Shown: one piece after another, positions 17,728 to 63,936 of the stretch | Layout: each line of letters begins with the position of its first letter | Position numbering within the stretch: the stretch's first letter is position 1 | Position numbers and translations under genes: made by a program | Assembly (NCBI GenBank): GCA_900540365.1 | Contig: UQFN01000003.1 | Coordinates: 21,139-85,138 of the forward strand | DNA: 64,000 bases | Direction: 5' to 3' | From: an uncultured Mollicutes bacterium | Lineage (GTDB): Bacteria > Bacillota_I > Bacilli_A > RFN20 > CAG-826 | Notes under the pieces: generated by a model | Database searches by the model: none | The model's input: only the letters and a program-made list of their open reading frames with translations | Told to the model about the DNA's origin: nothing

Positions 17728-17830
17728 ATAAATTAGAAAAAAATATCATTTTTATTTAAATAAATTAATTTATTTGTAATAAAACACAAAAAAGTCGAAT
17801 AATTTCCTAATAAATAATATAATATTTAGG

Positions 17831-18784
17831 ATGAAAAAAATAGAAAAACACAATTTGAAAATTTTATATTTAGGAACTCCGGAAATAAGTAGTATTGTCT
17901 TAAGTAAACTTATTGAAAACAATTTTAATATTGTAGGAGTTATTGCCCAACCTGATAAAGAAAAGGATCGTAAAGGTAATATTATTCCAGTTGCAACTAA
18001 ACAAATTGCTTTGGTCCATAATATACCCGTATATCAATTTGATAAAATTAGAAATCATTATGAAGAAGTCAAACAACTTAAGTTTGATATTATTTTAACG
18101 ATGGCTTATGGGCAAATTATTTCTGAAGACATTTTAAGATTACCTCGATTAGGTGCATATAATTTACATGGATCATTATTACCTAAATATCGTGGAGCGG
18201 CTCCAATTCAATTTGCTTTACTTAATGGTGATAAAGAAACAGGTGTAACTTTAATGGAAATGGTTAAAGAAATGGATGCTGGTAAAATGTTTTACAAGGT
18301 AAAAGTTCCTATTTTAGATGAAGATAACTTCACAACTCTTTCTAAAAAAATTGCATATGCCTGTTTTGAAGCTTTTGATCAAGGAATTGAAGATGTCATT
18401 AACGGCCTTAATAAGGGTATTGAGCAAAATATTGAAGAAGTTTCCTTTACAGCTAAAATTTCAAATGATGTTGAAATGATAGATTTTAATCAATCTTCAG
18501 AGAAAATTTGTAATATAATTCGTGCGATTTCGATGAATATCGGTGGTTATTTTATTTATAATGATGAAAAATTTAAAGTTTTCTCGGCATTGCCTGTTAT
18601 TTTGGATGGTAAAACAACACCTGGAAAGATTTCTAAATATGATAAAAATGGATTTTTTGTTGAAACAAAAAATGGTTATATTGATATAAAAATTTTGCAA
18701 AAACCCGGAAAGAAAATTTCTAATTTTAAAGATTTTTACAATGGTAATCAAAAATTGTTCACAGTTGGACAAATTATTAAATGA
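17831..18784 (+). CDS. fmt: Methionyl-tRNA formyltransferase
   Basis: ILYLGTPEISS..., HGSLLPKYRGAAPIQ motif. Confidence 0.9.
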   Translation: MKKIEKHNLKILYLGTPEISSIVLSKLIENNFNIVGVIAQPDKEKDRKGNIIPVATKQIALVHNIPVYQFDKIRNHYEEVKQLKFDIILTMAYGQIISEDILRLPRLGAYNLHGSLLPKYRGAAPIQFALLNGDKETGVTLMEMVKEMDAGKMFYKVKVPILDEDNFTTLSKKIAYACFEAFDQGIEDVINGLNKGIEQNIEEVSFTAKISNDVEMIDFNQSSEKICNIIRAISMNIGGYFIYNDEKFKVFSALPVILDGKTTPGKISKYDKNGFFVETKNGYIDIKILQKPGKKISNFKDFYNGNQKLFTVGQIIK

Positions 18785-22977: not shown

Positions 22978-23010
22978 TAGTAATTTTTTAGTAATTTTTT
23001 AGTAGATTGA
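22978..23010 (+). repeat. 11-bp-phased TAGTA array (3 units)
   Basis: TAGTAATTTTT TAGTAATTTTT TAGTAGATTGA, starting 1 nt after the lepA stop. Confidence 0.85.
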
Positions 23011-23012
23011 TG

Positions 23013-23041
23013 TTGTCACAAAATCATTTTATTAATATAAT
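23013..23041 (+). promoter_or_regulatory. Sigma-A type promoter for the Fic-like gene
   Basis: TTGTCA-17nt-TATAAT, about 18 nt upstream of the ATG. Confidence 0.6.
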
Positions 23042-23059: not shown

Positions 23060-24448
23060 ATGGGTGCTAATGATTTAGGAGTTCGCTTTAGTAATAACAT
23101 CTATGCAACTCAGCAAGATGTAAAAAAAGCGATGAAAATACAATTAATAGATAATATTTGGAATCAAATTCTTGAATATAGAAGTAATTTCCAAATTATT
23201 TTAAGCTTAAAACACATTACAGGGGTTAATTATAGTATTTGTTTAACGCCTACTATCAGTGAACGTATAAATAAAGTTGAACGCAAATTAGTTCGTGCAA
23301 TGCTTAATTATTCAAAATTAGGGAAAAATGGAAAAAGAGCTTTTAAAGAAAACTCTTTACACATTATATTAAAGTCTATTGCAAGAAAATATAAATTAGA
23401 AATCAATGAATCTGATTTATCAAATATTATTAATGGCAATGAAAATTTACTTTCACCTGATTTATATATTTTAAGTAGATACTATGATGCTTTAATGAAA
23501 GTCGTTGATAATTATCAATACGATATTAATGATGACTTTTTAGGATTAATTTATAGCGCATTACTTGGAACTAATGATTTAACCGAATTTTATCGAACAA
23601 CAGAAGTTAATTCTGGATTAAGTAAAGTAGTTATCAATCGTTTATATTTAGGAGTTCCTGTTGACAATATTGAAACATCAATGAATTCTTTGATTACTTT
23701 CTTAAAAACTAGCAATGCTTCTTTATTTGTTAAAGCTGTTAGCGCTCTTTATTATGTATACTATATAAAACCATTTGAGACTTTTAGCGAAGAAATAAGT
23801 GTTTTATTATTTAAAAATATCTTAGCTCATAATGATTTAGAAGAAGTTAGTGTCTTTTTAAATGTTGAAGAGTTATTACTTAATAAAGAAGAACTTGAAG
23901 CAATTATCTTAGAAAGTCAAAGAACTTTAGATTTAACTTATGTCATTGATTATGTTTTAAGAAAATTTGAATCTGGTATGGATGAATATTTAGATCGAAT
24001 TGTAAAATCAATGCGTGATGAGATAAAAGAAGAAACATATAGTGTTGACAATAAAGAAAATAAAATAGAAAATGAAACGATTGAAAAGCCTGTAGTTGAA
24101 GAAATTAGTAAACAAGCTGTTGAAGAACCAAAGCAAACAACTAGCGTTCTAAATTACAATAAAACTATTGCCTTTTCAAATATTCCAGAAGGATTAAGTG
24201 AAGAAGAAGCATCTAAACTGGAGACACGTCTTCTTGAAATTTATCCTGATTTATCGCGTTCGCAAGCTTATTTTTATGCAAGACATTGTACTCTTGGATC
24301 AAAATATACTATTGCCCAATTTAAAAAGGAAGTTGGTTGTGCTTATGAAACAGCTAGAACAAGCATGGATTTCCTTGTTTACCTTGGATTTTATCGAAAA
24401 GAACCATTAAAAAATAAATTTGTTTATATACCAGTTAAGAAAAATTAA
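23060..24448 (+). CDS. Fic-fold protein with degenerate active-site motif and C-terminal winged-helix domain
   Basis: YYVYYIKPFETFSEEISVLLF aligns to the Fic core xxIHPFxDGNGRxxRLL, but with His->Lys and GNGR lost. The C-terminus YTIAQFKKEVGCAYETARTSMDFLVYLGFY is wHTH-like. Confidence 0.45.
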   Translation: MGANDLGVRFSNNIYATQQDVKKAMKIQLIDNIWNQILEYRSNFQIILSLKHITGVNYSICLTPTISERINKVERKLVRAMLNYSKLGKNGKRAFKENSLHIILKSIARKYKLEINESDLSNIINGNENLLSPDLYILSRYYDALMKVVDNYQYDINDDFLGLIYSALLGTNDLTEFYRTTEVNSGLSKVVINRLYLGVPVDNIETSMNSLITFLKTSNASLFVKAVSALYYVYYIKPFETFSEEISVLLFKNILAHNDLEEVSVFLNVEELLLNKEELEAIILESQRTLDLTYVIDYVLRKFESGMDEYLDRIVKSMRDEIKEETYSVDNKENKIENETIEKPVVEEISKQAVEEPKQTTSVLNYNKTIAFSNIPEGLSEEEASKLETRLLEIYPDLSRSQAYFYARHCTLGSKYTIAQFKKEVGCAYETARTSMDFLVYLGFYRKEPLKNKFVYIPVKKN

Positions 24449-24723: not shown

Positions 24724-25807
24724 TCTTTATGTTCATATTCCATTTTGTAGAAATATTTGCTCCTATTGTGATTTTTTTAAAATATTAAAAAACAAAACTT
24801 TTGAAGACAAATATATAAATGAACTTGTTAAGGATTTAAAAGAAGTCCAAAACAAGTTTTTATTATTTAAAACAATTTATATTGGTGGAGGAACACCATC
24901 TTGTTTAGAATTTAATAATTTAGAGAAAATACTAAAAGTATTATCTAAAATGCATCTAAATAAATATGAATTTACTATTGAATGTAATCCAGAAGATATT
25001 AATGATGAATTTATAAAATTAATTACTAAATATGGAGTTAATCGAGTATCTATCGGAATTCAAACATTTAATCAAAGTTCATTAGCTAGACTTAATCGTC
25101 AAAGTAATATTGACTTTAAAGAAGCAATAAATAGAACAAAAAAATATATTTCAAATATTAATGTTGATTTTATATATGGTTTACCTAATGAAAATTTAAA
25201 TGATATTAAAAATAATTTAGATACTTTCCTTGAACTAGATGTTAACCATGTTTCTTTATATAGTTTAACAATAAGTAAAAATACTTTATTTTATAATCAA
25301 AAAATAAAAGAAATAAGCGAGGATGATTCACGTATATATTATGACTATATAAGTAGTAGATTAAATAAAAATGGATTTAAATGTTATGAAGTAAGTAATT
25401 TTGCTAAAAAAGGTTTTGAATCAAAACATAATTTAAATTATTGGCTTGATAATTTTTATCTTGGAATAGGAGCAGGAGCACACGGATATATTAACAATGT
25501 GCGTTATAAAGTCTCTTCTAATCTTTTATTATATTTAAATGGCGAAAGAAAAATTGAAGAAGAAGTAATAGATGAAAAACTACATAAAGAAGAGTTTATT
25601 ATGGTTGGGTTAAGACTTAAAAAGGGACTAAGTCTAATTAAATATGAAAGTATTTTTAAAGTTAATTTTTTAGAAGAATTTTCTAAAATAATAGATATAT
25701 TAGTTAAAGAAAGACTTATAAAAATTGATAAAAATTATTTAAAATGTACAAAAAAGGGCTTTATTATTCAGGATCAAATAATAGTTAAATTTTTTGAGTA
25801 TATATAA
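24704..25807 (+). CDS. hemW: Radical SAM heme chaperone HemW (HemN-like)
   Basis: Start moved to MKQKINSLYVHIPFCRNICSYCDF (CxxxCxxC). lepA-hemW-hrcA synteny. Confidence 0.85.
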   Translation: MKQKINSLYVHIPFCRNICSYCDFFKILKNKTFEDKYINELVKDLKEVQNKFLLFKTIYIGGGTPSCLEFNNLEKILKVLSKMHLNKYEFTIECNPEDINDEFIKLITKYGVNRVSIGIQTFNQSSLARLNRQSNIDFKEAINRTKKYISNINVDFIYGLPNENLNDIKNNLDTFLELDVNHVSLYSLTISKNTLFYNQKIKEISEDDSRIYYDYISSRLNKNGFKCYEVSNFAKKGFESKHNLNYWLDNFYLGIGAGAHGYINNVRYKVSSNLLLYLNGERKIEEEVIDEKLHKEEFIMVGLRLKKGLSLIKYESIFKVNFLEEFSKIIDILVKERLIKIDKNYLKCTKKGFIIQDQIIVKFFEYI

Positions 25808-25839
25808 AAATATACTTAAAGTATACTAGAAAACTACTA
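25807..25839 (-). repeat. 11-bp-phased TAGTA array (3 units, inverted relative to hemW)
   Basis: Minus strand TAGTAGTTTTC TAGTATACTTT AAGTATATTTT. Abuts the hemW stop codon. Confidence 0.7.
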
Positions 25840-25902: not shown

Positions 25903-25929
25903 TTAGCACTTTTTTATTGACAGTGCTAA
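25903..25929 (+). promoter_or_regulatory. CIRCE operator 1 (HrcA binding site)
   Basis: TTAGCACTT-N9-CAGTGCTAA, compared with consensus TTAGCACTC-N9-GAGTGCTAA. Confidence 0.9.
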
Positions 25930-25945
25930 TTTGTTAGTTTATATT
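25917..25945 (+). promoter_or_regulatory. hrcA operon sigma-A promoter
   Basis: TTGACA-17nt-TATATT. The -35 is embedded in CIRCE 1. Confidence 0.7.
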
Positions 25946-25949
25946 ATTG

Positions 25950-25976
25950 TTAGCACTTAGAAAAAATGAGTGCTAA
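25950..25976 (+). promoter_or_regulatory. CIRCE operator 2
   Basis: TTAGCACTT-N9-GAGTGCTAA, just downstream of the -10. Confidence 0.9.
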
Positions 25977-31846: not shown

Positions 31847-32233
31847 ATGAAATCAGCGTTAGAAGTTTTAAGAAAATATCGTAATAAAAATAGTAATTTA
31901 ATAGATGATTATTATAAAAAGAAGAAACTCGGAATTAAAATTGAAAACTATTCCTCTTTATTTTATGTAATGGAAGATGAGACCTCAAAAGCTTATTTAA
32001 ATCCACATCTCCATTTAGTTGTAATTATTAATAATGATGGATATATTGATAATTTAATTTATTTATATGATCGAAAAATCAAATTTTATGATAGCGTAGA
32101 AATAAATGATAAACTAAAAATTGTACTTAATAATTACTATTTTTCTACTAAATACAACTTTATTGAGAGTTTGTATGAAAATGGGTTCATAAGTTATTTT
32201 TTATTTACTAAGTTAAAAAAAGAGTGTTTGTAA
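31847..32233 (+). CDS. Hypothetical protein (128 aa)
   Basis: Tightly packed between rsmE and mtaB. No recognisable motif. Confidence 0.5.
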   Translation: MKSALEVLRKYRNKNSNLIDDYYKKKKLGIKIENYSSLFYVMEDETSKAYLNPHLHLVVIINNDGYIDNLIYLYDRKIKFYDSVEINDKLKIVLNNYYFSTKYNFIESLYENGFISYFLFTKLKKECL

Positions 32234-43605: not shown

Positions 43606-44380
43606 TGATTTATTAAAAAAAATTGCTAAATTTTATCCTAAAACCATTGCAAAAAAATATCACGATCCTGTAGGATTACAAACAGGAAAGTTAAAAGAAG
43701 AAACAAAAACAATCTTTTTATGCCTTGATTTTGATGAAATTGTTTACGATTATTTAGAAAAAAACAATCTTTTTAACAAGATTGACTTAATTATTACTCA
43801 TCATCCATTTATATTTGGAACAAAATATAAAGTTTTTAAATATGATGAAAATAAAAGGAAATTGTGTGCATTAATCGATGAAAAAGATATTCCAATATAT
43901 TCTTATCATACGAATTTCGATGAAGGCAAAGATGGAATGAATGATGCTCTTGCTAGAAGACTTGAATTAATAGATATAAAACCTTTAGAAGGTGATCCGA
44001 TGGCAAGAGGAGGCAAATTACCTTTTGAAATGAATATTGAAGATTTTGCAAAATATGCAATTAATAAATTTGATGTTAATTATTCGTTGTTATTAAATTA
44101 TGGAAAATCTACTATTAAATCAGTTGCTGTTGTAGGTGGTGGTGGATGGAGAAGTTTTTCCATTGCTATGAAAGAAAACTACGATATTTTTATAAGTGGT
44201 GACATTCCACATCATGGAAGAAGAGAAGTTATCTCAAATAAATATAATTATTTAGATATGCCTCATGAGATAGAAAAAATATTTATGGAAGCTTTTAAAA
44301 ATAAGCTTCATGAGATTGCTCCTGATATTGAAGTTATTTCAATTGATCATGAAAAATTACCAAAAATTATTTTAAAGTAG
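43595..44380 (+). CDS. NIF3-family metal-binding protein (YqfO-like)
   Basis: ITHHPFIF and SGDIPHH motifs, plus synteny. Confidence 0.8.
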   Translation: MKTNDLLKKIAKFYPKTIAKKYHDPVGLQTGKLKEETKTIFLCLDFDEIVYDYLEKNNLFNKIDLIITHHPFIFGTKYKVFKYDENKRKLCALIDEKDIPIYSYHTNFDEGKDGMNDALARRLELIDIKPLEGDPMARGGKLPFEMNIEDFAKYAINKFDVNYSLLLNYGKSTIKSVAVVGGGGWRSFSIAMKENYDIFISGDIPHHGRREVISNKYNYLDMPHEIEKIFMEAFKNKLHEIAPDIEVISIDHEKLPKIILK

Positions 44381-44417
44381 AAAAATAGTAGTTATTTAGT
44401 TTTAAATAAGTAGGAGG
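44375..44417 (+). repeat. 11-bp-phased TAGTA-type array (4 units)
   Basis: AAGTAGAAAAA TAGTAGTTATT TAGTTTTAAAT AAGTAGGAGG. Includes the NIF3 stop codon and merges into the next RBS. Confidence 0.7.
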
Positions 44418-44424
44418 TGCAAAA

Positions 44425-49406: not shown

Positions 49407-49437
49407 AAAATAGTAGCCTAATGGTTACTATTTTTTT
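49407..49437 (+). terminator. Intrinsic terminator after yneF
   Basis: AAAATAGTAGCC-TAAT-GGTTACTATTTT. The G-U pair exists only on the plus strand. Followed by a T-run. Confidence 0.75.
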
Positions 49438-49444
49438 ATTACAA

Positions 49445-49477
49445 TAAATATACTAATAAATTACTAAAAAATTACTA
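49445..49477 (-). repeat. 11-bp-phased TAGTA array (3 units)
   Basis: Minus strand TAGTAATTTTT TAGTAATTTAT TAGTATATTTA, starting 1 nt after the plsY stop. Confidence 0.85.
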
Positions 49478-54841: not shown

Positions 54842-54885
54842 AAGTAATTATTTAGTATTAAATTAGTAATATTATAGTATTAAAT
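54842..54885 (+). repeat. 11-bp-phased TAGTA array (4 units)
   Basis: AAGTAATTATT TAGTATTAAAT TAGTAATATTA TAGTATTAAAT, starting 1 nt after the parC stop. Units 2 and 4 are identical. Confidence 0.85.
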
Positions 54886-54948
54886 ATTTTTATTATTTTT
54901 GAATAAATACTGTTATATTTTAAGACTGTTTATTATATAATAATAAAG

Positions 54949-55482
54949 ATGAAAAAAATATTGCCCTTTGCACATGCAAAATGTGTTTACGATATTAATC
55001 CAGATTTTTTTAAAAAGATGAACGTCAAATATATTTTCTTAGATTTAGACAATACTTTAGCAACTCATAAAACATTAGTACCTTCAAAAGAAACATTATC
55101 ATATATTAAAAAATTAAAAGAAAACGACTTAATTCCAATAATAATTTCTAATAATAAAGAAAGTCGCGTTAAAACTTTTGCTGATAAGTGCGATGTTAAC
55201 TATATTTATAAGACATGTAAGCCTTATACTTTTAAATTAAATAAATTTTTAAAGGTTAATAATATATCGAAAGAATATGTTATAATGATAGGTGATCAGT
55301 TATTAACTGATATCAAATGTGCAAATAGGTTAGGGGTAAAATCAGTATTAACAGAAAAATTGTGGTCAGGAGATCAACTTATTACTAAATTCACTCGTTG
55401 GTTGGACACAATTAAACGTAATAAATTAAGGAAAGATAATCAACTAATTGATTGGGAGGTAATTTATGGCCGAATTAAATAA
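54949..55482 (+). CDS. yqeG: YqeG-family HAD phosphatase
   Basis: DLDNTL motif, GDQLLTD, synteny with yqeH. Confidence 0.85.
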   Translation: MKKILPFAHAKCVYDINPDFFKKMNVKYIFLDLDNTLATHKTLVPSKETLSYIKKLKENDLIPIIISNNKESRVKTFADKCDVNYIYKTCKPYTFKLNKFLKVNNISKEYVIMIGDQLLTDIKCANRLGVKSVLTEKLWSGDQLITKFTRWLDTIKRNKLRKDNQLIDWEVIYGRIK

Positions 55483-58073: not shown

Positions 58074-58219
58074 AATTAATATACTACTTCGTATAATATC
58101 TATTATGTTAAATAAAGTCAAATAATATAGATATAATCGATACTTTTTTATTTTACTATTTAATTACTAACTAAATGTTGTAGATTATAATAATGACTTT
58201 TCCACACTATTTATACATA

Positions 58220-58252
58220 AAAATATACTAAATAATTACTAATTATTAACTA
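58220..58252 (-). repeat. 11-bp-phased TAGTA array (3 units)
   Basis: Minus strand TAGTTAATAAT TAGTAATTATT TAGTATATTTT, immediately after the stop of ORF 58253..58732. Confidence 0.8.
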
Positions 58253-58732
58253 TTAACAAATACAAACTTTTTCGAATTTAGCATTTTTACTCATTAATTG
58301 AGATAAAAATTCTTTATAATAAGCTACTATTTTCCTTGTATAAAGTTCATCTACGTAAATTCTTCCTTCATTTATTAATTCATCGTTTATAATTAGATTT
58401 TTACTTAAACGATGTATTTTATGAATTAAAGCAACATATTTTTCATTATTATTAAACAAATTAATTTTCCCTACATTAATTCCAATTGTATCAATATTTC
58501 TAGATTCTGAAACTATTGGACAAATTATTGTAGTATTATCTTTTTGAGATGAATCTTCTAAAACAATACCTAAAAAATGATTATTATTATAATCTTTAAA
58601 TCTAATTATTTGATTCTTAAATAGTAATAAAATATTTTTATTTTTCCCTATTAAAGAAAAATTTGCCCATTCTAATTGACTTATCAAACGATTGTTATCA
58701 AAAAATACTTTATAAATTACTTCCTTTTTCAT
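58253..58732 (-). CDS. Hypothetical 159-aa protein with weak PemK/MazF-like toxin-fold pattern
   Basis: RBS GAGGTG. The segment GIVLEDSSQKDNTTIICPIVSES...YVALIHKIHRLSKNLI resembles the MazF pattern xLVLSxxxxNxxxxxVIVAPITS...SVALxxQIRTIDKxRL. No adjacent antitoxin ORF. Confidence 0.35.
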   Translation of the reverse strand: MKKEVIYKVFFDNNRLISQLEWANFSLIGKNKNILLLFKNQIIRFKDYNNNHFLGIVLEDSSQKDNTTIICPIVSESRNIDTIGINVGKINLFNNNEKYVALIHKIHRLSKNLIINDELINEGRIYVDELYTRKIVAYYKEFLSQLMSKNAKFEKVCIC

Positions 58733-58823
58733 TTTTCACCTCATTTCGGCTGTAATTAAACGTATAAGGGACCATTTAGTTACAGCCATCTATGGAAAGC
58801 AAGAGGTTAAAACACCCCTTATG
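58733..58823 (-). promoter_or_regulatory. Structured 5' leader (candidate cis-regulatory RNA) of ORF 58253..58732
   Basis: Minus strand hairpins: AAGGGGT-GTTTTA-ACCTCTT (58801-58820) and GGCTGTAAcTAAA-14nt-TTTAaTTACAGCC (58748-58787). ATAAGGG (58816-58822) is complementary to the loop sequence CCCTTAT (58764-58770). Confidence 0.4.
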
Positions 58824-58860
58824 TATACAAGTCGCTTCCAAAATGAATTGTTGGGGGGTA
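58824..58860 (-). promoter_or_regulatory. Bipartite G/C-rich promoter-like motif (copy B)
   Basis: Minus strand TACCCCCCA-N14-AAGCGACTTGTATA, with the same blocks and spacing as 13770..13806. Confidence 0.5.
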
Positions 58861-58867
58861 ATTTTGA

Positions 58868-61816: not shown

Positions 61817-62704
61817 TTACTTTCTTTTTGAATACAAATCTAAAGCATCTAATATTTTTTTTGTCGATAAATGCGTATAAATTTGTGTTGTTTCGATTTT
61901 TGAATGACCTAATAATTCTTGTACAACTCTTAAGTCTGCTCCGTTTTCAAGTAAATGTGTAGCGAAGCTATGTCTTAATGTATGAGGAGAAATTTTTTTA
62001 TCAATTCCTGCTCTTTTTGCATATTTATTAAGTTCAACAAAAAAATATTGTCTTGTTAAAGGTTTTCCATCTTTTTTATTTATAAATAGATACTTACTTT
62101 TTGAAAAAACTTTATTATTTTTATTTTGACTTAAATAATTATTTAAATATTCAAGAGCTATATAATTAAGTGGAACAAAACGTTCTTTATTTCCTTTTCC
62201 TTTTAAAGTAATTAATTTCTCTTCAAAATTAATTGATCTTTTTTCTAAATTTATTAATTCACTAACACGTAAACCAGCACTATACATTACTAAAACCATA
62301 GTTTTATCACGATATTCAGTTGGTTTTGTTTCATCAAAAACACTTAATAAGTTTTTTATTTCATCTATACTTAAAAAGGTTGGAATATGCTTTTCTTTTT
62401 TTGGTAATATAACTTCTTTAACTAAATTTGTAGCAATCTTTTCATTTTCTAAAAAAAGAAAGAAATTCTTAATTGTAGAAATTCTTCTTGAAATAGTCGA
62501 ACTTTTTAAATCATTTAAAGATTGTTCATAAATAAAATTATCAATTAATTCATCATTTAAATCATCAACAGTTTTAATATTAGGAAAATATTTTAAAAAC
62601 ACTTTAAAATCATCCTTATAATCTGGAATAGTTGATTTAATATTAAGGCCTTCTTCAACCGCTTTATATTCTAAAAAAAGTTCGATAGCATCATTTATAT
62701 CCAT
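61817..62704 (-). CDS. xerD: Tyrosine recombinase XerD/RipX-like
   Basis: RHSFATHLLENGADLRVVQELLGHSKIETTQIYTH catalytic region. 295 aa. Adjacent to deoB as in Bacillus. Confidence 0.8.
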   Translation of the reverse strand: MDINDAIELFLEYKAVEEGLNIKSTIPDYKDDFKVFLKYFPNIKTVDDLNDELIDNFIYEQSLNDLKSSTISRRISTIKNFFLFLENEKIATNLVKEVILPKKEKHIPTFLSIDEIKNLLSVFDETKPTEYRDKTMVLVMYSAGLRVSELINLEKRSINFEEKLITLKGKGNKERFVPLNYIALEYLNNYLSQNKNNKVFSKSKYLFINKKDGKPLTRQYFFVELNKYAKRAGIDKKISPHTLRHSFATHLLENGADLRVVQELLGHSKIETTQIYTHLSTKKILDALDLYSKRK

Positions 62705-62705
62705 A

Positions 62706-63896
62706 TTATTTCTTTAAATCACTTAGCTTTTTAAAAGCTTCTTTATTCATTTCACGATTTAACTCATTTATTATAACAAAAGTTTTGTTTTCTTTTTCTT
62801 GAATTTGATAATTGAATAAGTTTAATTGGGTATTAACTTCATTTTTATTTTTAAAATTTTTTAATGAAAAACCAATTAAACGTATAATTTCGAAATTAAA
62901 ATGTTCTTTAAATAGGTGTAAAGTTTCTTTTAAGATATATTCGTAATTATCTGTATAACTAGAAAAAGTTTTACTAAATGAAGTTTGTTTAAAATGAGTT
63001 TCTGAAGCAGCATCTTTATAATTTATTGTGATAGTTTTAGCAAGTTTTTCTTCTCTTTTTAAAGATTCACAAACCGATTTAACTTCTTTAGTTAAAATAT
63101 CAATAATAATATTTTCTTCATTTGTATCATAATCTAAAGTACGACTCATTCCAATCGATTTAGGATCGTTATCACTTAAATCTATTTGATCATCACTATT
63201 TCCTTCTAATAAATCGCAAATTGATTCACTAAACTTTCCTAGTGTATTTATGAGCTCTGGGTCGTTATTTTTAGCTTTATAATATAAATCACCAATTGTG
63301 TAAATACCAATTTGATTTAATCGTGGAACTGTTTTTCTTCCAACTCCAAAGAAATTTTTAACTGGTAAAGGAAATAAGATTTTTTCAATATCTTTATTTC
63401 TTATAATCGTAATTCCTAAGGGTTTATGAATATCGCTTGCCATTTTAGCAATAAATTTAGTTGTTCCTACTCCAATTGAGCATTTTAAATTTAAATCTTT
63501 AAAAACTCCTTGTTGAATTTCAATCAAAATTGACTTTATATCTTTCTTATTTTTATAAAAATAATCCGTTAAATCCACAAAACATTCATCAATCGACATC
63601 GGTTCTATTTTTGATGAATATTTTTTTAAATAATGAAAAAATTCACGCGATAATAGCTGATAAAAAGGGAAATCTGAATTAATTATCTTAATATTTGGGC
63701 AAAGCATTTTTGCTTGAAAGGTTGGCATTCCACTATGAATGCCGTATTCTCTAGCTTTATATGAACAAGTTGAAACAATACCTCTACGTCCATCACCACC
63801 GACAATAAAAGCTTCATTTTCTAATGAAGGATTTTTGATTTCCTCTGCTCGGCAGAAGAATGCATCCAAGTCGCAGTGAAGAATAATACGTTTCAT
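62706..63896 (-). CDS. dinB: DNA polymerase IV (Y-family)
   Basis: MKRIILHCDLDAFF, SIDECFVD motifs. Confidence 0.9.
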   Translation of the reverse strand: MKRIILHCDLDAFFCRAEEIKNPSLENEAFIVGGDGRRGIVSTCSYKAREYGIHSGMPTFQAKMLCPNIKIINSDFPFYQLLSREFFHYLKKYSSKIEPMSIDECFVDLTDYFYKNKKDIKSILIEIQQGVFKDLNLKCSIGVGTTKFIAKMASDIHKPLGITIIRNKDIEKILFPLPVKNFFGVGRKTVPRLNQIGIYTIGDLYYKAKNNDPELINTLGKFSESICDLLEGNSDDQIDLSDNDPKSIGMSRTLDYDTNEENIIIDILTKEVKSVCESLKREEKLAKTITINYKDAASETHFKQTSFSKTFSSYTDNYEYILKETLHLFKEHFNFEIIRLIGFSLKNFKNKNEVNTQLNLFNYQIQEKENKTFVIINELNREMNKEAFKKLSDLKK

Positions 63897-63903
63897 AATA
63901 CTT

Positions 63904-63936
63904 ATATATTACTATAAATATACTAAATAACTACTA
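63904..63936 (-). repeat. 11-bp-phased TAGTA array (3 units)
   Basis: Minus strand TAGTAGTTATT TAGTATATTTA TAGTAATATAT. The first TAG is the stop of the edge ORF. The array ends 7 nt before the dinB ATG. Confidence 0.8.

Follow-up and report, generated by a model that had tools for sequence, protein, structure and literature searches.

An uncultured gut Bacilli lineage (Candidatus Onthovivens and relatives) carries short arrays of a five-base motif, TAGTA, repeated exactly once per DNA helical turn at the ends of many operons. The arrays are conserved across genera, and are in two cases written into protein-coding DNA with rare codons. They therefore look like a previously undescribed signal, read by an unknown factor. 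The window analysed here, a 64,000-nucleotide stretch of contig UQFN01000003.1, holds eight such arrays of three or four cores at exactly 11-nt spacing, and the same arrays are found at orthologous sites in seven further genomes. My tentative interpretation, held with less than even confidence, is that they are phased binding sites for an unidentified clade-specific factor, more likely a DNA-binding oligomer, marking transcription-unit boundaries. No named element class fits.

Identification and conservation of the arrays

The original prediction described seven intergenic loci with 3-4 tandem 11-nt units, and this observation is confirmed: all seven are present at the positions and on the strands it gave. 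In order to test whether the arrays exceed chance, a comparison with shuffled sequence that had been set in advance, on a genome-wide scale, as a condition for the idea to stand, I searched the window for TAGTA-N6-TAGTA-N6-TAGTA with at most 1 mismatch, and obtained 10 matches against 0.03 expected in dinucleotide shuffles. Same-strand TAGTA-TAGTA distances give 13 pairs at 11 nt and 4 at 22 nt, and essentially none at other distances. A relaxed three-unit detector gives 12 hits at period 11 and 0-2 at periods 8-14; across eight genomes it gives 27 arrays at period 11, and 0-1 at any other period from 7 to 16.

Several details differ from the original prediction. There is an eighth locus (array C), embedded antisense in a coding region. 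Arrays E and H each have a fourth, degenerate unit, which in array H overlaps the dinB ATG. The cores of array D are AAGTA, TAGTA, TAGTT and AAGTA. The sub-block TTAGTATATTT, thought to recur in four loci, occurs exactly in three. Finally, the proposal that arrays begin 0-2 nt from the stop codon holds in the window, but in relatives the offset is -19 to +12 nt, with one exception at 75 nt. The predicted TTGTCA-17-TATAAT promoter beside array A is confirmed, and is one of the three best (11 of 12) matches in 17-36 kb.

Table 1. Arrays and neighbouring features in the window. Labels beginning with L in the last column denote DNA from relatives.
Feature	Position	Strand	Description	Occurrence in relatives
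Array A	22978-23010	+	3 units (TAGTAATTTTT TAGTAATTTTT TAGTAGATTGA), 1 nt after the lepA stop; last core starts 13 nt before the -35 of the next gene's promoter	Orthologous arrays in L209, L211 and L002; GC-rich relatives L003, L004 and L015 keep 1-2 TAGTAGTT units at the same place
Promoter (context, not part of the repeat)	23013-23041	+	TTGTCA-17-TATAAT promoter of the 462-aa Fic-like gene, directly downstream of array A	Last core 11-14 nt before the -35 in eight genomes, 23 nt before it in L211
Array B	25807-25839	-	3 units (TAGTAGTTTTC TAGTATACTTT AAGTATATTTT), flush with the hemW stop but inverted relative to hemW and hrcA	Inverted array conserved in L209 and L210; in L210 it fills a 36-bp spacer between co-directional genes
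ORF128	31847-32233	+	Conserved 128-aa ORF containing array C
Array C	32118-32150	-	3 units (TAGTAGAAAAA TAGTAATTATT AAGTACAATTT), embedded antisense in ORF128	Four genomes in all
Array D	44375-44418	+	4 units (AAGTAGAAAAA TAGTAGTTATT TAGTTTTAAAT AAGTAGGAGGT), spanning the NIF3 stop and running into the cshB Shine-Dalgarno sequence	Orthologous arrays in L082, L083 and L085; in L086 and L087, where ispH is inserted, an array in the same orientation is embedded in the ispH coding DNA
Array E	49434-49477	-	4 units after the plsY stop (convergent spacer), followed directly by a bidirectional hairpin terminator	Orthologous arrays in L082, L083, L086 and L087; L088 reduced to one unit plus a hairpin
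Array F	54842-54885	+	4 units, 1 nt after the parC stop; leaderless-type promoter of yqeG (TATAAT, 7 nt, ATG at 54949) about 50 nt further downstream	Orthologous arrays in all six relatives; in L086 followed by a hairpin terminator and then a separate promoter
Array G	58220-58252	-	3 units flush with the stop of the 159-aa ORF with a predicted MazF fold (convergent spacer that also holds dif)	Orthologous arrays in all six relatives
159-aa ORF	58253-58732		Predicted MazF-fold protein, clade-restricted orphan
Array H	63893-63936	-	4 units between xseB and dinB; first TAG is the xseB stop, last unit (AAGTATTATGA) contains the dinB ATG, with no Shine-Dalgarno sequence	Orthologous arrays in all six relatives

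I next compared the arrays between genomes. They are present at the same sites in genomes with ParC identity of 83, 73, 70, 70, 66 and 62%, and in L002 (LepA identity 75%), whereas no TAGTA-N6-TAGTA pair occurs in the other low-GC Firmicutes loci examined. Over 119 units, core positions 2-4 are 98-99% invariant, T1 is 83% and A5 is 88%, while the spacers are close to an even A/T mix and drift freely between orthologous arrays. G3 is found in 118 of 119 units, with T in the one exception and never A; 17% of units are AAGTA, and by the fifth core base TAGTA accounts for 88% and TAGTT for 10%. As RNA the arrays are unstructured, as no array folds better than shuffled sequence (z from -0.9 to +1.4).

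Placement at gene ends and within coding DNA

The arrays lie at the downstream ends of transcription units. The original prediction had named a genome-wide lack of bias toward gene 3' ends or orientation as grounds for rejection, and in the loci examined the bias is clear: 21 arrays lie in 82 co-directional spacers, 9 in 17 convergent spacers and 0 in 22 divergent spacers. Of these 30 arrays, 29 start within -19 to +12 nt of the adjacent stop, even when the spacer is 95-260 bp, and 7 of 8 intergenic site classes are co-oriented with the upstream gene. The flanking genes are independent units in at least some genomes, since yqeG, cshB and dinB have their own TATAAT-type promoters and the array sites coincide with gene insertions in relatives. 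All known sites lie within 36 kb of dif, none lies in positions 1-22.9 kb of the window, and the genome-wide distribution and distance from dif were not examined; a terminus-specific role therefore cannot be excluded. A polarity toward dif of the fork-trap or KOPS type was however rejected, as orientations left of dif are 3 plus and 3 minus, and the plsY array follows gene direction rather than replichore direction.

Further observations nevertheless qualify the idea that abutting a stop codon is the defining feature of these arrays. The inverted hemW array is conserved in three genomes. In L210, the array of the lepA site lies after a hairpin terminator, 75 nt from the stop and 13 nt before a -35, having stayed next to the downstream promoter after a gene insertion. 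Two arrays are embedded antisense in coding DNA, in ORF128 (four genomes) and ispH (two genomes), and are maintained by rare codons. In ORF128, all four genomes use the rare codons that create the cores (Tyr TAC at 10-16% usage, Leu CTT/CTA about 20%, Ile ATA or Val GTA about 25%), with a joint chance of about 0.0015 per genome.

I also examined pentamer usage within genes by synonymous-codon shuffles. Only coding-strand TACTA is depleted (0.59, or 0.75 with the strict null), while TAGTA (1.02), AACTA and TAGTT are not; no version of the model favoured below predicts this. A maximal-order Markov test had shown no depletion, but was superseded because the constituent 4-mers are themselves depleted. 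The depletion suggested that arrays act against transcription in the TACTA-reading direction, but this was rejected, because the embedded arrays would then cripple their host genes (ORF128, ispH), yet are positively maintained.

Possible functions of the arrays

The interpretation in the original prediction is partly supported. Its proposals that the arrays are one repeat family beyond chance, tied to gene 3' ends at operon boundaries, mostly with the polarity of the upstream gene, lacking a hairpin and matching no named class, are all supported. Of its four hypotheses, a phased binding array for an unknown DNA- or RNA-binding protein is the one favoured by the evidence, while back-up stops, a T-tract pause signal or intrinsic curvature, and a purely UP-like element are not supported.

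In the model I favour, tentatively, the arrays are cis-acting recognition sites for one sequence-specific factor restricted to this lineage, with the cores (TAGTA, minor variants TAGTT and AAGTA) placed so that a cooperative oligomer can occupy them in register. I consider a double-stranded-DNA-binding protein sitting on one face of the helix only marginally more likely than an RNA-binding factor. The factor would demarcate transcription units, limiting transcription that crosses the boundary in the TAGTA-reading direction, that is, read-through of the upstream gene at most sites, and antisense transcription at the hemW and ORF128 sites; antisense copies would lie inside coding DNA where no spacer exists. 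The analysis itself establishes the family and its exact phasing, selection on the cores only, conservation at orthologous sites across genera, the distribution among spacer classes, maintenance by rare codons inside genes and the absence of RNA structure. That a protein binds, that it binds DNA, and that the consequence is boundary, terminator or insulator activity, are on the other hand inferences.

Several points favour recognition at the DNA level: the spacing of strictly one helical turn, the conserved inverted hemW array (including in the 36-bp co-directional spacer), the antisense embedded arrays, and the position of the L210 array. In addition, a phage contig (L297) has about nine phased TAGTA/TAGTT units directly upstream of tandem consensus promoters (TTGACA-17-TATAAT), and the two core variants are the reverse complements of the two pentamers preferred by the Rok winged helix, which covers about 5 bp (PMC6212790). 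However, no binding protein has been identified, and a DNA-binding model does not by itself explain the orientation bias. At plsY, and at parC in L086, the array lies between the stop codon and a hairpin terminator, so it is transcribed, and as a terminator it would be redundant. Where the array fills the whole spacer, the downstream gene (cshB, dinB, or yqeG in L083, L085 and L087) has no room for a separate promoter, and termination there cannot be complete unless a promoter overlaps the array.

An RNA-level element is less likely, but is the strongest alternative. Here the arrays would function as (UAGUA-N6)n in transcripts, where an oligomeric RNA-binding or RNA-cutting protein would recognise the phased pentamers, following the logic of TRAP or HutP on phased UAG repeats. 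It would terminate, process or stabilise the RNA at the end of the upstream cistron, and, where the array abuts the next start codon, set translation of that gene or create short-leader mRNAs. In agreement with this, most arrays have the polarity of the transcript they follow and start at its stop codon, the plsY and L086 parC arrays are inside the 3' UTR, arrays run directly into the cshB Shine-Dalgarno sequence or the ATG of dinB and yqeG, which lack one, the arrays are unstructured, their absence from divergent spacers matches transcribed 3' elements such as REP, and pentamer usage in genes is strand-specific. In contrast, the hemW and ORF128 arrays have no same-strand gene and could act only on antisense RNA, the L210 array lies downstream of a hairpin terminator, exact 11-nt spacing without any tolerance is unusual for flexible RNA, and the pentamer avoided in mRNAs is UACUA, not UAGUA.

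A candidate factor for this alternative is the 159-aa protein. Its AF2 model (mean pLDDT 76.5) has a predicted MazF/CcdB fold, with MazF and CptN as the best Foldseek hits (E about 1e-3, target-normalised TM-score 0.6-0.7), and it has only 19 representative clusters among 1.84 billion proteins. MazF enzymes typically read 3-7-nt (often 5-nt) single-stranded RNA motifs. The sequence match is however below threshold (Pfam PemK E = 0.06), no conserved Arg appears among the invariant columns, catalytic residues were not verified, no adjacent small antitoxin gene appears in the gene calls, and its link to the arrays is only co-occurrence in one lineage.

It is less probable that the arrays are primarily activator-binding or UP-like sites for the downstream promoter, as with OmpR/PhoB-type direct repeats, with proximity to the upstream stop resulting only from genome compaction. 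The conserved spacing to a near-consensus -35 at the lepA site, the units retained there in GC-rich relatives, the L210 array and contig L297 all argue for this. So does the fact that dinB and yqeG start 0-11 nt after the last unit without a Shine-Dalgarno sequence, so that any promoter of their own would have to overlap the array. However, promoters are concentrated in divergent spacers, where no array is found, while 9 of 17 convergent spacers have one, at gene ends with no downstream gene. The plsY arrays (five genomes) are followed only by a terminator, the distance from array to promoter is variable at parC (about 20-60 nt) whereas that to the upstream stop is roughly constant, and embedded arrays have no evident promoter.

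A protein-independent physical signal, either curved or anisotropically flexible DNA, or a hairpin-independent U-rich pause or termination signal read by RNA polymerase with or without NusG, is very unlikely. The period is about one helical turn, spacers are T-rich on the sense strand (about 56% T among the A/T spacer bases), and about half of the units create TTNTTT across the unit junction, which matches the B. subtilis NusG pause motif. However, the conserved part is TAGTA with its G rather than the A/T tract, many spacers are TATA-type rather than A-tracts (curvature was not computed), and arrays are found in both orientations and inside genes. Back-up stop codons closing all three frames are effectively refuted: successive TAG triplets do fall in all three frames, TAGTAA and TAGTAG units are double stops and arrays begin at stop codons, but TAA would serve equally well and G3 is never A, T4 and A5 are conserved even in TAGTAT units (TAT is not a stop), 17% of units are AAGTA, random stops are already frequent at 26% GC, and inverted and coding-embedded arrays cannot act as stops. 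Chance or a neutral or selfish slippage repeat, although short tandem repeats arise easily at this GC content, is refuted by the shuffles, the absence from the loci examined in other equally A/T-rich Firmicutes, the non-identical units with conserved cores and diverging spacers, and the rare codons.

If the arrays are read by a dedicated factor, this lineage has a general genome-punctuation signal unlike the two textbook bacterial solutions, hairpin terminators and Rho. It would show how a very A/T-rich, compact genome marks operon boundaries, give a concrete motif for annotating transcription units in an abundant but uncultured group of gut Bacilli, and provide a compact (33-44-bp), possibly directional insulator part for synthetic biology. 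The coding-embedded copies would be a clean natural example of a non-coding signal overriding codon preference, and the avoidance of TACTA and the orphan MazF-fold protein give two independent handles for finding the factor. A bolder reading, unlikely but not excluded, is that of a second, hairpin-independent and direction-specific "end of transcription unit" code, used alongside hairpin terminators and read by a clade-specific factor, possibly the domesticated orphan MazF-fold protein encoded next to dif, with selection strong enough to write it antisense into coding DNA wherever no spacer is available.

Comparison with other repeats and further searches

Boxes of the OmpR/PhoB family (for example B. 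subtilis PhoP TT(A/T/C)ACA repeats with 11-bp periodicity, and S. aureus SaeR GTTAA-N6-GTTAA) share with the arrays a short core with an A/T spacer, strict 10-11-bp head-to-tail phasing, and 2-4 or more units. Those boxes sit at or over the -35 of a limited regulon, a position found here only at the lepA site, while the arrays are far denser (8 in 64 kb), anchored to gene 3' ends, present at convergent ends and inside genes, and absent from divergent promoter regions. The clade DNA examined was about 300 kb of terminus-proximal sequence, and whether a cognate winged-helix regulator is encoded in the genome was not assessed. Similarly, an UP element, an A/T-rich tract at -40 to -60 directly upstream of a -35, fits in position only at the lepA site, and the conserved part is TAGTA.

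The preferred pentamers of Rok, a B. subtilis xenogeneic silencer, are TACTA and AACTA, with a central G:C flanked by TpA steps (PMC6212790), and correspond to the two main cores. Rok sites are however not phased, lie in horizontally acquired A/T-rich islands, and the under-representation of both pentamers on both strands expected for Rok was not found, as only coding-strand TACTA is depleted. A tblastn search with verified Rok found nothing in 12 clade loci; whole genomes were not covered, and this result does not decide whether a homologue exists.

TRAP and HutP targets are phased (G/U)AG repeats read in Bacilli by a ring-shaped oligomer, and TRAP sites can overlap an intercistronic Shine-Dalgarno sequence, as at trpG. 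Their spacing is 5 or 7 nt, they are found at one or a few loci per genome, and they act through leader terminator/antiterminator structures or Shine-Dalgarno occlusion. Most arrays read UAGUA in the sense transcript but those of hemW and ORF128 read UACUA, an observation that settles the resemblance neither way. No competing structure was found, overlap with a Shine-Dalgarno sequence occurs only at cshB, and most sites are 3' ends, with others antisense.

REP/BIME and other dispersed extragenic repeats share the many copies after stop codons between co-directional or convergent genes and the absence from divergent spacers, but REP-type elements are imperfect palindromes that fold into hairpins and are conserved over their whole length, while these are unstructured direct repeats with 5 of 11 positions conserved. 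The arrays also lack the G+C-rich hairpin and U-tract of intrinsic terminators, genuine examples of which exist elsewhere in the window. Iterons and ParR-bound parC-type centromeres are 11-bp direct repeats bound cooperatively on one face of the DNA, but are single loci next to a rep or par gene on plasmids, with whole-unit conservation, while the arrays are dispersed on a chromosome at gene ends. Type III toxin-antitoxin systems (ToxI, CptI with ToxN/CptN) share the occurrence of a MazF/CptN-fold protein together with tandem direct repeats, but their repeats are 34-45 nt, structured, single-locus and immediately upstream of the toxin gene, whereas here they are 11 nt, dispersed, and downstream of the MazF-fold gene. 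The 135-nt leader upstream of that gene showed no evident repeats in the alignment and has no Rfam match. Rfam gave no hit at gathering threshold for the whole window, and none at E <= 1 around dif and the MazF-fold gene.

A metagenome-wide pattern scan, which was not exhaustive, was dominated by ordinary perfect 11-bp tandem repeats and an unrelated Bacteroidales-like family, and yielded no extra clade sequence; scans of viral contigs found only unrelated phage iterons, apart from L297. I also considered the 462-aa gene downstream of array A as the factor, but it belongs to a broad Fic-like family that extends to relatives with at most 1-2 units and no arrays elsewhere in the loci fetched. 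In one GC-rich relative, the apparent array at L004:18255 is in-frame coding sequence, not an element.

Occurrence and conservation of the phased arrays

The window is 26% G+C, uses the standard genetic code (stops TAA 47, TAG 8, TGA 2) and derives from a metagenome assembly, with Candidatus Onthovivens MAGs as its nearest named relatives. Its gene order is of the Bacilli type, with lepA-hemW-hrcA-grpE-dnaK-dnaJ, then dnaG-sigA-trmK-NIF3-cshB, then parE-parC. The original prediction described seven intergenic loci with TAGTA cores repeated at exactly 11 nt, and had named their frequency relative to expectation as a point on which it could fail. The observation is real: TAGTA-N6-TAGTA-N6-TAGTA with at most one mismatch gives 10 matches against 0.03 expected, and the same-strand TAGTA spacing histogram has 13 pairs at 11 nt, 4 at 22 nt, and almost nothing elsewhere. 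A relaxed detector gives 12 hits at period 11 and 0–2 at periods 8–14, and finds exactly eight loci, all between 22.9 and 63.9 kb. The seven reported loci are correct and the eighth is new, while two loci have a fourth unit, and the sub-block TTAGTATATTT, said to recur in four loci, is exact in three.

The related genomes had also been proposed as a test, and I fetched syntenic DNA from relatives through ParC and HrcA homologues, and through LepA (these loci are designated below by L-numbers). Arrays are present at the orthologous sites, namely the lepA, hemW, NIF3, plsY, parC, 159-aa-ORF and xseB 3′ ends, in genomes whose ParC is only 62–83% identical, and in the relative L002. Over 119 units, A2, G3 and T4 are 98–99% invariant, T1 is 83% (otherwise A) and A5 is 88% (otherwise mostly T), while the six spacer positions are close to an even A/T mix and differ between orthologues. 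There is also internal order, as a TAGTAG(W)T(W)TT unit is followed by a TAGTATA unit in 23 of 29 cases, and AAGTA variants appear mostly as the first or last unit of an array. Across eight genomes the detector gives 27 arrays at period 11 and 0–1 at any other period. In contrast, the other equally A/T-rich Firmicutes loci examined have no TAGTA-N6-TAGTA pair at all, and GC-rich relatives (L003, L004, L015) keep only 1–2 units, upstream of one promoter. This is purifying selection on a 5-nt core and on its phase, and it rules out chance and neutral slippage.

Position relative to genes and promoters

A bias towards the 3′ ends of genes had likewise been set beforehand as a condition, and I next mapped the arrays onto spacers of at least 20 bp in 11 clade loci. 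Arrays occupy 21 of 82 co-directional, 9 of 17 convergent and 0 of 22 divergent spacers; orthologous sites are not independent, so at the level of site classes the contrast is weaker. In 29 of 30 cases the array starts −19 to +12 nt from the stop of the adjacent gene, even in spacers of 95–260 bp, for example at parC in the window, L082, L086 and L088, and at the 159-aa ORF in all genomes. At plsY (five genomes), and at parC in L086, the order is stop, array, hairpin terminator.

The flanking genes are separate transcription units in at least some genomes: yqeG, cshB and dinB have TATAAT-type elements 6–8 nt before the ATG, and the array sites coincide with gene insertions in relatives (ispH after NIF3, a Zn-ribbon gene after lepA, and a PHP gene after hemW). 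Several genes, in the window and (yqeG, cshB and dinB) in L082, L086, L087 and L088, have such a hexamer 6–8 nt before the ATG and no Shine-Dalgarno sequence, suggesting that leaderless or very short-leader mRNAs are common in this lineage. The arrays therefore mark downstream boundaries of transcription units, and about half of such boundaries in the window carry a hairpin and about half carry an array.

Three facts complicate a simple 3′-UTR reading. First, the hemW array is inverted in the window, L209 and L210, and in L210 it fills a 36-bp spacer between co-directional genes. Second, the eighth locus lies antisense inside a genuine, conserved 128-aa ORF. In all four genomes its cores are created by rare codons (Tyr TAC at 10–16% usage, Leu CTT/CTA at about 20%, and Ile ATA or Val GTA at about 25%), with a joint chance of about 0.0015 per genome, and an array embedded in ispH in L086 and L087 shows the same use of CTA and TAC. 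The signal is therefore selected at the nucleotide level inside genes, where it can sit only in the antisense orientation, because the sense reading contains stop codons in all frames. Third, in L210 a gene with its own hairpin terminator was inserted after lepA, and the array now lies after that terminator, 75 nt from the stop, and 13 nt before the −35 of the next promoter. In eight genomes the last core of this array lies 11–14 nt before that −35. Phage contigs (L297, L243 and L271) also carry 11-bp-phased TAGTA-type direct repeats directly upstream of consensus promoters, and in L297 about nine phased units lie before two tandem TTGACA-17-TATAAT promoters.

Nature of the arrays and candidate factors

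The best-supported reading, although a tentative one, is that the arrays are phased recognition sites for one clade-specific factor, and that they demarcate transcription units. The phasing, core conservation and placement are shown by the sequences, whereas the factor and its action are inferred. I lean towards double-stranded-DNA recognition, given the exact helical phasing, function in both orientations and inside genes, the position after a terminator and next to promoters, and the phage example, and I lean towards action on transcription in the TAGTA-reading direction. All the sites examined lie within 36 kb of dif, and the genome-wide distribution and any terminus-specific role were not tested; the first 22.9 kb of the window has no array, which under a uniform distribution of eight sites would occur with probability about 0.03. 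An RNA-level mechanism of the TRAP/HutP kind, or processing by the predicted MazF-fold protein described below, is a serious rival. None of the known families considered satisfied its own defining criteria.

The interpretation given with the original prediction is supported in part, as a phased binding array for an unknown protein was among its proposals, but others are not supported. The arrays are not hairpins (fold z from −0.9 to +1.4), and match no Rfam family. They are not back-up stops, since G3 is never A, T4 and A5 are conserved in TAGTAT units where they form no stop, and 17% of units are AAGTA. They are not A-tract curvature or T-tract signals, because those parts are not the conserved ones. 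Nor are they oriented by replication, as left of dif the orientations are 3 plus and 3 minus, and the plsY array follows the gene.

Pentamer usage in clade genes (window, L083, L085–L088) is strand-specific. With synonymous-codon shuffles, TACTA on the coding strand is the second most depleted of 1024 pentamers (observed/expected 0.59), and with a null that preserves codon-junction dinucleotides it is fourth (0.75, z = −5.1), whereas coding-strand TAGTA is not depleted (1.02). Control low-GC Firmicutes give 0.85 and 0.93 for TACTA under the two nulls. Reverse complements of −10-like hexamers (ATTATA, AGTATA, ATTCTA) and the homopolymers AAAAA and TTTTT are also strongly depleted in the clade. 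The simple reading is that the pentamer is harmful in the TACTA direction, but this conflicts with the positively maintained embedded arrays, and I therefore record it as unexplained. It could account for the orientation bias of intergenic arrays if UACUA in mRNA is disfavoured for an independent reason, although counts outside arrays in spacers are too small to test this.

As for the factor itself, the two core variants are the reverse complements of the two pentamers preferred by the Rok winged helix, which covers about 5 bp (PMC6212790), but no Rok homologue occurs in the clade DNA examined. The orphan 159-aa ORF, at a syntenic position beside dif in every relative, has no Pfam family above threshold and is predicted, with mean pLDDT 76.5, to adopt a MazF/CptN fold. 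It has no adjacent antitoxin gene, and is restricted to this lineage, with only 19 representative clusters among 1.84 billion proteins. This restriction parallels that of the arrays, and MazF enzymes read short RNA motifs, but the link is circumstantial. The 462-aa gene downstream of the array that follows lepA is not a good candidate: it belongs to a large, broad Fic-like family in uncultured Bacilli, of which one member is named ‘Fic family protein’ by its source and another carries PF02661 (Fic). The gene itself has no Pfam hit, and its promoter keeps a TAGTAGTT unit even in 54–61% GC relatives.

Replication terminus and other features of the region

The window spans the replication terminus, with a GC-skew sign change near 58 kb, genes converging there, a xerD-like gene and a dif site, ACTTCGTATAATATCTATTATGTTAAAT, which matches the B. 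subtilis dif site (sequence in PMC3025954) at 23 of 28 positions and is conserved in all six syntenic relatives. Between dif and the array that follows the 159-aa ORF lies a DnaA-box-like nonamer of unknown function, conserved in six of the seven genomes (TGTGGAAAA[G/C]), while L088 has TGTGGATAAA. The non-coding leader upstream of the 159-aa ORF has a conserved CCCCCC...ACGACTTGTATA...GGGG block in relatives, and no Rfam match even at E ≤ 1. No tRNA genes and no Rfam family at gathering threshold were found anywhere in the 64 kb (positions 1–64000).

Positions of the features described in the text (window coordinates unless a contig is named).
Feature	Position	Strand	Remarks
462-aa Fic-like gene after lepA	23060–24448	+	
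CIRCE-type inverted repeat, first	25903–25929	+	TTAGCAC-N13-GTGCTAA; overlaps the −35
hrcA promoter	25917–25945		TTGACA-17-TATATT
CIRCE-type inverted repeat, second	25950–25976	+	TTAGCAC-N13-GTGCTAA; just downstream of the −10
Eighth array, in the 128-aa ORF	32118–32150	−	
TATAAT-type hexamer near ATG	17818–17833		
TATAAT-type hexamer near ATG	54936–54951		
dif site	58086–58113	+	
DnaA-box-like nonamer	58198–58206	+	TTTTCCACA on the plus strand, TGTGGAAAA on the minus strand
159-aa ORF, predicted MazF/CptN fold	58253–58732	−	
Leader of the 159-aa ORF	58733–58867	−	135 nt, non-coding
xerD-like gene	61817–62704	−	
Phased units in phage contig L297 (IMG/VR 3300028797_000845)	L297:480–720	−	

The two CIRCE-type repeats lie at the hrcA promoter, which is the expected HrcA operator arrangement; textbook CIRCE is TTAGCACTC-N9-GAGTGCTAA. 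Finally, an unrelated recurrent family of 4–8 tandem 11-nt units of TAGTAGGTGAT or TAGTAGGTTAT was found in nine metagenome contigs of 43–52% GC (L097, L100, L101, L104, L119, L130, L132, L137 and L165). In several of these contigs the units lie downstream of Bacteroidetes-type promoter motifs (TAnnTTTG), and are followed by ACCATC-N-ACCATC.
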